From Escherichia coli (GTDB taxonomy: Bacteria; Pseudomonadota; Gammaproteobacteria; Enterobacterales; Enterobacteriaceae), in the NCBI RefSeq assembly GCF_003334355.1, contig NZ_QOWP01000001.1: a stretch of 64,000 bases of DNA; one strand, written 5' to 3'. Both the position numbers and the translations under genes were made by a program. Shown here in pieces: positions 5,826-6,913 of this stretch; the stretch's first letter is position 1; every line of letters starts with the position of its first letter. The notes under the pieces are model-generated. The model was not told the origin of the DNA. It did no database searches and saw nothing but the letters and a program-made list of their open reading frames with translations.

Positions 5826-5905
5826 GTAAATAGCTCACTTTGTTAACAACTTTAACTACTCTTTAATGCAGTATTAAAGATTAATCGGTAACAAAGTGAG
5901 CTGTT

Positions 5906-6913
5906 ATGACTGATAAAACCATTGCGTTTTCGCTACTCGATCTGGCCCCCATTCCCGAAGGTTCTTCAGCGCGAGAAGCATTCTCCCACTCTCTCGATCT
6001 CGCCCGTCTGGCTGAAAAGCGCGGCTATCATCGCTACTGGCTGGCAGAACACCACAATATGACTGGCATTGCCAGTGCTGCCACGTCGGTATTGATCGGC
6101 TATCTGGCGGCGAATACCACCACGCTGCATCTGGGGTCTGGCGGCGTGATGTTGCCTAACCACTCACCGTTGGTCATTGCAGAACAGTTCGGCACGCTTA
6201 ATACACTCTATCCGGGGCGAATCGATTTGGGGCTGGGTCGTGCTCCGGGTAGTGACCAACGGACAATGATGGCGCTACGTCGTCATATGAGCGGCGATAT
6301 TGATAATTTCCCCCGCGATGTGGCGGAGCTGGTGGACTGGTTTGACGCCCGCGATCCCAATCCGCATGTGCGCCCGGTACCAGGCTATGGCGAGAAAATC
6401 CCCGTGTGGTTGTTAGGCTCCAGCCTTTACAGCGCGCAACTGGCGGCGCAGCTTGGTCTGCCGTTTGCGTTTGCCTCACACTTCGCGCCGGATATGCTGT
6501 TCCAGGCGCTGCATCTTTATCGCAGCAACTTCAAACCGTCAGCACGGCTGGAAAAACCATACGCGATGGTGTGCATCAATATTATCGCCGCCGACAGCAA
6601 CCGCGACGCTGAATTTCTGTTTACCTCAATGCAGCAAGCCTTTGTGAAGCTGCGCCGTGGCGAAACCGGGCAACTGCCGCCGCCGATTCAAAATATGGAT
6701 CAGTTCTGGTCACCGTCTGAGCAGTATGGCGTGCAGCAGGCGCTGAGTATGTCGTTGGTAGGTGATAAAGCGAAAGTGCGTCATGGCTTGCAGTCGATCC
6801 TGCGCGAAACCGACGCCGATGAGATTATGGTCAACGGGCAGATTTTCGACCACCAGGCGCGGCTGCATTCGTTTGAGCTGGCGATGGATGTTAAGGAAGA
6901 GTTGTTGGGATAG
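5906..6913 (+). CDS. yhbW: Luciferase-like (LLM class) flavin-dependent oxidoreductase YhbW, 335 aa
   Basis: ORF track 5906..6913; ATG verified. Confidence 0.9.

Follow-up and report, generated by a model that had tools for sequence, protein, structure and literature searches.

A conserved inverted repeat between ubiV and yhbW of Escherichia coli as a candidate stress-activator site and translational silencer of read-through mRNA

In the insertion sequence IS10, a segment upstream of the native start is complementary to the ribosome-binding region: native transcripts lack the 5' arm and can be translated, whereas those that come in from outside fold back and hide the start site. In the case of pyrC, alternative starts a few nucleotides apart at one promoter are chosen by nucleotide pools. 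Such control by start-site choice was reportedly worked out for pyrC and pyrD of E. coli and Salmonella by Wilson and Turnbough and by Sorensen and Neuhard in the early 1990s, and fold-back inhibition of the IS10 (Tn10) transposase mRNA was described by Davis, Simons and Kleckner in 1985 (Cell 43:379, a reference given in PMC13181058). Class II promoters of the MarA/SoxS/Rob family carry a forward marbox that overlaps the -35 region (PMC12052159, PMC5684230). In this study, we describe an inverted repeat in the gap between ubiV and yhbW of E. coli, which has features in common with all of these systems.

The repeat lies in a 64-kb stretch of E. coli DNA, the whole of which was analysed and is called the window here; window position p corresponds to p + 3297542 of MG1655 (NC_000913.3), and features are on the plus strand unless otherwise stated. 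The gene names ubiV and yhbW are those of the RefSeq annotation of identical E. coli DNA. The ubiV coding sequence occupies 4929-5825 in the list of open reading frames (the RefSeq start is at 4947) and ends with the TAA at 5823-5825; after a gap of 80 bp, yhbW starts with the ATG at 5906 and runs to 6913, encoding a luciferase-like flavin monooxygenase (Pfam PF00296 on homologues). ubiV is the last gene of the ubiUV operon, which is activated by Fnr under anaerobiosis (PMC10470549). yhbW is co-expressed with nfsA, nfsB and fpr, and is induced together with the MarA/SoxS/Rob/RamA regulons (PMC4310594, PMC6561319, PMC7653855).

The two 16-nt arms, agctcactttgttaac at 5832-5847 and ggtaacaaagtgagct at 5887-5902, are located where the initial annotation had placed them, although they pair at 15 of 16 positions, with A5846 mismatched opposite G5888. 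The perfect core is of 14 bp and is formed by AGCTCACTTTGTTA (5832-5845), found by inverted-repeat search and proposed here as an anti-ribosome-binding-site sequence, and by TAACAAAGTGAGCT (5889-5902), which comprises the yhbW 5' leader and ribosome-binding region. The repeat search extends the match to 17 nt at 94% (5829-5845 with 5889-5905), that is, to a stem of 17 bp with one mismatch or wobble ending 1-3 nt before the AUG. The core starts 7 nt after the ubiV stop codon, its right arm stops 3 nt short of the yhbW ATG, as annotated, and it encloses a 7-bp inner hairpin, ctttaat-gcagt-attaaag, which is indeed present at 5861-5867 and 5873-5879. Folding of the RNA from 5820 to 5915, which the initial annotation had proposed as a check, gives a stable structure of -28.8 kcal/mol, compared with -14.1 +/- 2.9 kcal/mol for 200 shuffled sequences (z = -5.1), none of which folds as well. 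This is the sole perfect inverted repeat of at least 13 nt with a loop of 3-80 nt in the window, and block-shuffled windows contain a mean of 0.38 repeats even at 12 nt. The inverted repeat is thus real and exceeds chance expectation.

About 18 enterobacterial genera share both arms in the same place, the left arm being conserved in all sampled Enterobacteriaceae with ubiV upstream, and a complementarity of 13-14 nt is kept in about 16 genera. The arm has no further copies in the window, and 5424 of 5426 E. coli genomes carry it at a single place; a dispersed repeat (REP/BIME, ERIC/IRU or MITE) was rejected on the basis of this single place per genome and of the common position across about 18 genera. 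An ERIC element does insert beside the repeat, as a separate entity, and is present in the gap in at least 1423 E. coli genomes, about a quarter of strains; in Salmonella the gap contains REP. These ERIC or REP insertions put the stem at least 125 nt from ubiV, and the stem is not lost. The termination control suggested in the initial annotation is unlikely, as the A+T-rich stem continues into GUUAUGACUG and lacks the U-tract of an intrinsic terminator, and scans of 5600-6100 and, for the interval from ubiV to yhbW, of 3500-7100 detected nothing terminator-like. Searches with Rfam 15 returned at this locus only chance matches below threshold (mir-1285 at 27 bits against a gathering score of 56), and nothing above threshold at eight orthologous loci, including those with long-form leaders. 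A short upstream open reading frame, from the GTG at 5897 to the TGA at 5912-5914, was discarded, since the frame is open in Atlantibacter and Pluralibacter.

Comparison of 20 taxa suggests that the gap may contain a promoter for yhbW. Within the left arm lies a forward marbox-like 15-mer (GCTCACTTTGTTAAC, 5833-5847), proposed as the MarA/SoxS/Rob (RamA) site of a class II promoter and conserved in most taxa. Scored with a weight matrix built from 30 published MarA ChIP-seq sites, which themselves reach 4.6-20.3 bits, it obtains 9.1 bits and ranks 39 of 127,972 window positions (top 0.03%); it shows three mismatches to the strict consensus gcannwwntgnnaaa, including T for A in GCAC, the limit in PMC12052159 being two. 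Then come a spacer (5848-5861, with no strand assigned) whose length is conserved and whose sequence is not, and a conserved centre block (TTTAATGCAGTATTAAAG, 5862-5879), which corresponds to the inner hairpin and holds two -10 candidates, CAGTAT (5869-5874) and TATTAA (5872-5877). The distance from the GCTC of the left arm to a TAYKAN hexamer is 39 nt in 17 of the 20 taxa and 38 nt in 2, whereas the -10-like block lies anywhere between 28 and 146 nt from the ATG; a fixed spacing on one side and a variable distance on the other point to a promoter followed by a variable 5' UTR, rather than to an RNA domain. The fixed spacing, together with the conservation, suggests that the centre block is the -10 element. 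The start zone of yhbW's own transcript, placed 6-8 nt downstream of either candidate, is predicted at 5878-5886, within the loop between the arms, so that the marbox centre (5840) would lie at about -40 to -45, the class II range being -36 to -55 (PMC12052159). Both -10 candidates match the consensus poorly, a good -35 hexamer is lacking, and a simple consensus scan finds no sigma-70 promoter in the gap. The supplements of PMC12052159, PMC10268841, PMC5684230, PMC7815308 and PMC3415461 list no mapped transcription start site or marbox for yhbW. The centre block was also considered as a marbox and rejected: its forward strand scores below 4 bits, and the reverse-strand candidate, GCATTAAA, runs into the non-conserved spacer with its second half.

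yhbW has its own stress-regulated promoter, and the work of others shows that it is a member of the MarA/SoxS/Rob/RamA regulon. Purified RamA shifts a yhbW promoter fragment of Klebsiella pneumoniae and raises its in-vitro transcription 6.9-fold. This fragment is of 261 bp (its primers map to L100 1023-1283), begins a mere 41 nt before the left arm and contains the ortholog of that arm as a candidate RamA site; the best marbox match in this EMSA and in-vitro transcription fragment, at 9.0 bits, is the same 15-mer. The limits of the fragment, together with the promoter geometry, argue for a yhbW start between the arms. In E. coli H10407, MarA ChIP-seq reported no peak at the left arm, and the only peak near yhbW is 700 bp upstream, inside ubiV, with its site at window position 5128-5142. 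This ubiV-internal site lies outside the RamA-responsive K. pneumoniae fragment, and might nonetheless be the yhbW marbox of E. coli.

The apparent yhbW promoter takes in both the left arm and the inner hairpin, so the mRNA made from it probably lacks the stem, whose action would be confined to transcripts reading through from ubiUV. The sole Shine-Dalgarno-like element of yhbW by anti-Shine-Dalgarno duplex calculation, a weak GUGAG at 5896-5900, 5 nt before the AUG, is located in the right arm, and the best duplex with the 3' end of 16S rRNA covers 5893-5901 at -4.1 kcal/mol. The segment upstream of the predicted start is thus complementary to the Shine-Dalgarno and start region, with a perfect 14-bp stem over GUGAG. 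When both arms are on one RNA, the computed energy for opening the ribosome site is about 20 kcal/mol, whereas transcripts starting at 5878-5886 require 4-5 kcal/mol; the medians over 18 taxa are 16.9 kcal/mol for read-through and 5.1 kcal/mol for short transcripts. The contrast is absent in Mangrovibacter and weak in Salmonella, and the Klebsiella BIGb0407 row, computed with a mis-set start codon, should be disregarded. For an RNA with both arms, these values support the earlier claim that the long stem would hide the yhbW Shine-Dalgarno sequence. The translational control that had been derived from it is retained in part: occlusion is predicted for an RNA with both arms, and a switch within a single mRNA is not what the promoter layout suggests.

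The substitution pattern carries information about both proposed roles. Covariation of the arms in other enterobacteria had been put forward as a check on the stem, and on 15 distinct arm pairs, in which 88% of cells are paired, it stays within the shuffle controls and is not significant, the sequence of each arm being itself conserved. Part of the right-arm conservation has another cause than pairing, given that AACAA(A)GTGAG beside the ATG is conserved in Providencia, Erwinia and Brenneria, all of which are without the left arm. On the other hand, all 12 transitions that affect one side of a core pair produce G·U, and none produces A·C; since G·U is a valid pair only in the plus-strand RNA, this bias is strand-specific and would be unexpected for a DNA site. 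Two positions of the marbox show signs of dual constraint. At position 3 every taxon has T, as pairing with the A of GAGC requires, whereas among the 30 ChIP-seq sites A occurs 25 times, G 4 times and T once; position 14 keeps its A although it is mismatched in the stem. The helix also has lineage-specific extensions: AAU/GUU is added in E. coli, ACGG/CCGU in E. asburiae and CAGC/GCUG in the long forms. In Mangrovibacter, Klebsiella sp. BIGb0407, Cronobacter and Entomohabitans the stem has decayed in its distal half with the left arm unchanged, and one E. coli strain has a change in the right arm that forms C·A. The distance from arm to arm ranges from 43 to more than 160 nt across taxa, and many genera have a further structured module between the arms, which Escherichia, Salmonella and Citrobacter do not.

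All together, these observations allow us to propose a model, in which we infer the exact marbox, the position of the start, the read-through and the translational silencing. The left arm (5833-5847) would be a forward marbox overlapping or abutting the -35 of a class II MarA/SoxS/Rob-dependent promoter, with its -10 element supplied by the conserved centre block. Transcription from this promoter would start at about 5878-5886, between the arms, and yield a short mRNA with the right arm only, leaving the weak Shine-Dalgarno sequence and the AUG open, so that YhbW is made. Transcripts entering from upstream, mainly from the ubiUV operon, which has no terminator before yhbW, would carry the left arm as well; on such read-through RNA a stem of 14-17 bp would close the Shine-Dalgarno region to within 1-3 nt of the AUG and yhbW would be silent. 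The repeat would in this way insulate the gene of an O2-dependent monooxygenase from an anaerobic upstream operon. That the gap is a stress promoter plus ribosome region for yhbW, with a start between the arms and with read-through from ubiUV translationally closed, is a reading to which we give an even chance. The more specific proposal, that one sequence of 15 nt has two roles, as a MarA/SoxS/Rob site in DNA and as a silencer of yhbW translation in read-through RNA, barring anaerobic synthesis without a terminator, is more tentative, and we hold it at somewhat below even odds. In Brenneria and Erwinia a terminator seems to take over this task: they are without the left arm and have terminator-like hairpins directly after ubiV, which were found by eye and folding and are only suggestive, a simple terminator scan giving nothing in Brenneria, Erwinia or Acerihabitans.

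A strong conserved hairpin over the Shine-Dalgarno sequence, with substitutions to G·U only, would also be expected if the whole element were the 5' UTR of the yhbW mRNA, transcribed from a start upstream of 5832 and acting as a switch (thermosensor, or responsive to a ligand or protein) that masks the ribosome site until a signal arrives, and the module between the arms in many genera has the superficial look of an aptamer with a P1 helix as its closing stem. Nevertheless, this interior is wholly different between genera, with no insert at all in Escherichia, Salmonella and Citrobacter, there is no Rfam match, and covariation is not significant. A promoter better accounts for the 39-nt spacing kept over a non-conserved spacer and for the variable distance from there to the ATG, and the 41 nt upstream of the left arm in the K. 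pneumoniae fragment leave no room for a marbox and core promoter, all of which makes such a switch unlikely. We consider it slightly less probable still that the pairing has no selected function, the left arm having arisen by inverted duplication of the leader or by drift and the arms being constrained separately by promoter and ribosome site. The lack of significant covariation, the decay of the distal stem in several lineages and the conservation of a partnerless right arm in three other families would agree with it. The complementarity of 13-14 nt has nonetheless been retained in about 16 genera, one-sided changes lead only to G·U, the T at marbox position 3 is invariant where 25 of 30 ChIP-seq sites have A, and the lineage-specific helix extensions are built from different sequences.

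Two further explanations, both of low probability in our view, place the function elsewhere. The repeat might act in DNA, as two opposed marbox-like sites, the second at about +8 to +22, for MarA/SoxS/Rob monomers or for another protein, with RNA pairing as a by-product. Read in reverse complement, the right arm is itself a weak marbox match, with 4.7 bits in E. coli and 6.1-6.4 bits in Enterobacter, Franconibacter and K. pneumoniae, and the arms are conserved as sequence and not by covariation; monomers of the MarA family, however, bind asymmetric sites (PMC12052159), for which an inverted pair is unneeded, the distance between the arms varies, Providencia, Erwinia and Brenneria keep a right arm that has no left partner and matches the marbox poorly, and the bias of 12 G·U against 0 A·C is strand-specific. 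Alternatively, the hairpin might mainly serve the ubiUV mRNA, by stabilising its 3' end, blocking processing or acting as a weak factor-dependent stop, with an incidental effect on yhbW. Its position 7 nt after the ubiV stop, its folding energy of -28.8 kcal/mol and the repeated presence in the gap of elements of 3'-UTR type (ERIC, REP) favour this role. Against it, there is neither a U-tract nor a terminator-like match, the stem is kept where ERIC or REP separates it from ubiV, and a stabiliser need not end at the yhbW start codon or use its Shine-Dalgarno sequence. A role at the ubiUV 3' end is compatible with the stress promoter and closed read-through mRNA proposed above.

If this proposal is true, its scope of one locus makes the impact modest. 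It would explain how an anaerobic operon, ubiUV, and an oxidative-stress gene, yhbW, can lie 80 bp apart and co-directional without a terminator, and an RNA-seq signal over yhbW under anaerobiosis would not imply YhbW protein. The regulation should also survive the ERIC insertion that about one in four E. coli strains carry. In a wider context, the locus would be a clear chromosomal case of promoter choice deciding the translatability of an mRNA, known mainly from insertion sequences and pyrC, and would indicate that a transcription-factor site and an anti-ribosome-site sequence can share the same nucleotides.

Among the described systems, IS10 shares with yhbW a left arm upstream of the start, here a predicted one, that is complementary to the ribosome-binding region. 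yhbW differs in being a chromosomal stress-regulon gene and not a transposase, and fold-back is predicted only; outside transcription would come from a specific neighbour, the Fnr-dependent ubiUV operon, and the native promoter seems to use the 5' arm as its activator-binding site as well. As in pyrC and pyrD, the position of the start would decide whether a Shine-Dalgarno hairpin can form, longer 5' ends closing the ribosome site; unlike in pyrC, the alternatives at yhbW would be two promoters kilobases apart under different regulators. The likeness to class II promoters consists in a forward marbox-like 15-mer about 41-44 nt upstream of the predicted start, in the lack of a good -35 and in the documented place of yhbW in the MarA/SoxS/Rob/RamA regulons, whereas its site differs in its three mismatches to the strict consensus, in having no reported MarA ChIP-seq peak and in being the exact complement of the ribosome-binding region of yhbW itself.

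The gap between ubiV (stop codon at 5823-5825) and yhbW (ATG at 5906) contains an inverted repeat with a perfect core of 14 bp, in which a left arm at 5832-5845 pairs with a right arm at 5889-5902; the gene names are those of the RefSeq annotation of identical E. coli DNA, and window position p corresponds to NC_000913.3 position p + 3297542. The arms had been placed exactly in the initial annotation, whose 16-mers pair at 15 of 16 positions; the inner hairpin CTTTAAT-GCAGT-ATTAAAG, also noted there, is located at 5861-5879, and a repeat search extends the pairing of the arms to 17 nt at 94% identity (5829-5845/5889-5905). 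The predicted RNA fold of 5820-5915 reaches -28.8 kcal/mol, against -14.1 +/- 2.9 kcal/mol in shuffled sequences (z = -5.1), with the minus strand nearly as foldable (z = -4.1). The structure is real, strong and conserved, and it is the sole perfect hairpin-type inverted repeat of at least 13 nt in the 64-kb window. A dispersed repeat is ruled out, since the arm has no second copy elsewhere in the window and, of 5426 complete E. coli genomes, 5424 have the locus a single time; Rfam scans of this locus and of eight orthologous ones gave no family above threshold. Termination control, one of the roles first suggested for the repeat, finds no support: the terminator scan of the gap was negative, and an A+T-rich stem with GUUAUGACUG after it is not terminator-like.

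Comparison of the ubiV-yhbW or yhbW upstream region in about 22 Enterobacterales reveals three blocks conserved in Enterobacteriaceae, namely the left arm (consensus [A/G]GCTC[A/G]C[T/A]TTGTTAAC), a centre block at 5862-5879 covering the inner hairpin (TTTAATGCAnTATTAAAG), and the right arm (TAACAAAGTGAGC, with the ATG 5 nt later). The interval from the left arm to a TAYKAN hexamer inside the centre block measures 39 nt in 17 taxa and 38 nt in two others, and the 14 nt that separate the two blocks are unconserved in sequence. The distance from the hexamer to the ATG varies from 28 to 146 nt, owing to an additional structured segment, about 70 nt long, that many genera (Klebsiella, Kluyvera, several Enterobacter, Cronobacter, Franconibacter, Atlantibacter, Entomohabitans) carry downstream of the -10-like block and before the right arm and that is absent from Escherichia, Salmonella and Citrobacter. 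This segment (about 1116-1185 in the K. pneumoniae locus L100; also in L102, L005, L010, L088, L089, L092 and L094), which has no Rfam match, consists of ACAGCUUUCYGGC, a hairpin with a variable tip, GGAAGAAGACCUUCAAUCUGAUGAC and GCUGU, its consensus fold pairing the 5' ACAGC with the GCUGU just 5' of the Shine-Dalgarno region; Kluyvera has a further insert within it. As judged from sequence, two conserved blocks held at a fixed distance across a variable spacer, with a leader downstream whose length is free, are what a promoter (upstream element and -10) with its 5' UTR would show, and not what a single RNA domain would.

In this regard, published work places yhbW in the MarA/SoxS/Rob regulons of E. 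coli and in the RamA regulon of Salmonella and Klebsiella (PMC4310594, PMC6561319, PMC7653855), and the gene shows co-expression with nfsA, nfsB and fpr. Purified RamA binds a K. pneumoniae yhbW promoter fragment in a mobility-shift assay and raises its in-vitro transcription 6.9-fold (PMC4310594); the primers in S4 Table of that paper, mapped onto L100, define a fragment of 261 bp running from 41 nt 5' of the left arm to 83 nt into yhbW. With a weight matrix built from 30 MarA ChIP-seq sites (PMC5684230), the K. pneumoniae left arm (9.0 bits) is the top marbox match within this RamA-responsive fragment, and we infer that it is the activator site; the E. coli left arm, GCTCACTTTGTTAAC, scores 9.1 bits (rank 39 of 127,972 window positions). 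The candidate marbox lies in forward orientation, with three mismatches to the strict pattern gcannwwntgnnaaa. Either of two weak -10 candidates (CAGTAT at 5869-5874 and TATTAA at 5872-5877) would put its centre at about -40 to -45, which agrees with the -36 to -55 that PMC12052159 uses for class II promoters. From this geometry, yhbW transcription is predicted to start at about 5878-5886, between the arms; a literature search that included published data supplements returned no experimental start for yhbW. A further caveat is that MarA ChIP-seq in strain H10407 gave a single reported peak in the vicinity of yhbW, and it maps to 5128-5142, inside ubiV (PMC5684230). That interval (minus strand) is an exact gcacaatctgcttac, which Table 1 of that study lists as '(yhbV)', with strong in-vitro binding; the yhbW ATG is 764 nt downstream of it. 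This ChIP-validated site scores 13.4 bits and is outscored by the top matches in the window, 32305-32319 (+, 15.2 bits) and 15587-15601 (-, 15.0 bits). Conservation of the centre block extends over 17-18 nt, more than a -10 needs, and the block is itself palindromic, with one symmetric double change in Cronobacter and broken symmetry in Salmonella. It could also be an operator for some repressor, since vanillin induces yhbW independently of soxS (PMC6561319).

The right arm contains the ribosome site: GUGA(G) at 5896-5900, 5 nt before the AUG, forms the most stable duplex with the 3' end of 16S rRNA (-4.1 kcal/mol). AACAA(A)GTGAG adjoining the yhbW ATG is kept even in Providencia (L095, 1175-1200), Erwinia (L013, 2478-2500) and Brenneria (L014, 2470-2494), where the left arm is absent and no upstream partner is better than in shuffled sequence; the right arm is thus constrained independently, with the left arm added. 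The left arm is present in taxa with ubiV directly upstream and no terminator. A G+C-rich hairpin with a T-rich tail follows ubiV in Brenneria (-13.5 kcal/mol) and Erwinia (-20.4 kcal/mol), two cases only, both unflagged by a simple terminator scan. In Providencia, yhbW lies away from ubiV; as YhbW is nonetheless 85% identical to the E. coli protein, gene and leader were possibly acquired by horizontal transfer.

Masking of the yhbW Shine-Dalgarno region by the long stem, as initially proposed, is predicted for only one kind of transcript: opening the ribosome site (5894-5911) would cost 19.7-19.9 kcal/mol in RNA that includes the left arm, versus 4.1-4.9 kcal/mol for starts at 5878-5886. Over the 18 taxa computed, in which the row of Klebsiella BIGb0407 has a mis-set start codon, the medians are 16.9 and 5.1 kcal/mol, respectively, with no contrast in Mangrovibacter and a weak one in Salmonella. 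Fnr activates ubiUV in anaerobic and microaerobic conditions (PMC10470549), and no terminator was found between ubiUV and yhbW. The repeat would tie the yhbW promoter to the yhbW ribosome site, so that MarA/SoxS/Rob-induced, promoter-proximal transcripts would be the sole translated yhbW RNA and presumed read-through transcripts from ubiUV would be silenced for yhbW. This coupling is the best-supported reading, and we give it an even chance of being correct. The initial interpretation, a switch inside the 5' UTR of yhbW itself, is thereby refined rather than overturned: its structure stands, and the switch is unlikely in view of the promoter geometry and the limits of the K. pneumoniae RamA fragment. 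Stabilisation of the 3' end of the ubiUV mRNA, a role with a low probability of its own, would be compatible with the coupling.

Whether the pairing itself is selected bears on two further explanations. Standard pairs occupy 88% of cells over 15 distinct arm pairs, versus 33-44% when the partner is slid; covariation measures over these pairs, however, stay within shuffle controls because both arms are largely invariant, a non-significant result that agrees with a by-product devoid of selected function, which we regard as quite unlikely. The covariation check proposed in the initial annotation thus gives no positive outcome. Among core pairs 2-13, 12 cells are G·U and none is A·C, a bias favouring plus-strand RNA since the minus strand or a symmetric DNA site would give C·A mismatches. 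Every taxon has T at marbox position 3 (A 25, G 4, T 1 among the 30 ChIP-seq sites), the base required for pairing with the A of GAGC, and position 14 retains A despite a mismatch in the stem; helix extensions differ by lineage (AAU/GUU in E. coli, CAGC/GCUG in long forms, ACGG/CCGU in E. asburiae). The G·U bias, the T at position 3 and the lineage-specific extensions are weaker signals that point to pairing in plus-strand RNA. That the arms act simply as two inverted protein-binding sites in the DNA is unlikely, given the G·U bias, the variable arm distance and the asymmetric, monomeric binding of MarA-family proteins. Strict selection is argued against by the degraded distal stem half in Mangrovibacter, Klebsiella sp. 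BIGb0407, Cronobacter and Entomohabitans, and by a natural G-to-A change in the right arm of E. coli CFSAN061770 (L104 position 101, window 5896; AAAGTGAG to AAAATGAG), which weakens both the stem (C·A mismatch) and the Shine-Dalgarno-like GUGAG. The remaining E. coli polymorphisms seen (5822, 5827, 5829, 5860, 5881) all lie outside the arms.

A 125-bp ERIC (IRU) element (core GTGAATCCCCAGGAGCTTACATAAGTAAGTGACTGGGG, reverse orientation; about 433-557 in L001-L003, also in L009) is inserted at 5831|5832, directly 5' of the left arm between AAATA and GCTCAC; of 5426 complete E. coli genomes, at least 1423 have its junction, with both arms intact. E. albertii carries ERIC and one more insert. In Salmonella enterica (about 1020-1130 in L085-L087), REP/BIME-type palindromic units, GCCGGGTGGCGGC... 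and GCCTGATAAGCGTAGCGCCATCAGGC, occupy the space from the ubiV stop to the left arm, again an insertion just 5' of the arm. E. coli strain M19, which also carries ERIC, has an IS110-family element inside the right arm, after GGTAACAAAG (L004, about 915-925), which takes away the yhbW Shine-Dalgarno and start context. Beyond yhbW, the stretch 6925-7000, towards which yhbW and mtr converge, contains REP-like palindromic units (GCCTTATCCGAGCTGG... and GACCTGATAAGCGAAGCGCATCAGGC), and no canonical terminator was flagged in it.

All together, the yhbW repeat most likely adds a case to a principle already known, in which the start site of the transcript decides whether a ribosome site is occluded. 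The same logic underlies the fold-back inhibition of IS10, reportedly described by Davis et al. in 1985 (a reference cited in PMC13181058), and the control of pyrC, which is exerted through start-site choice. In contrast to these systems, the occluding arm at yhbW doubles as a candidate activator site.
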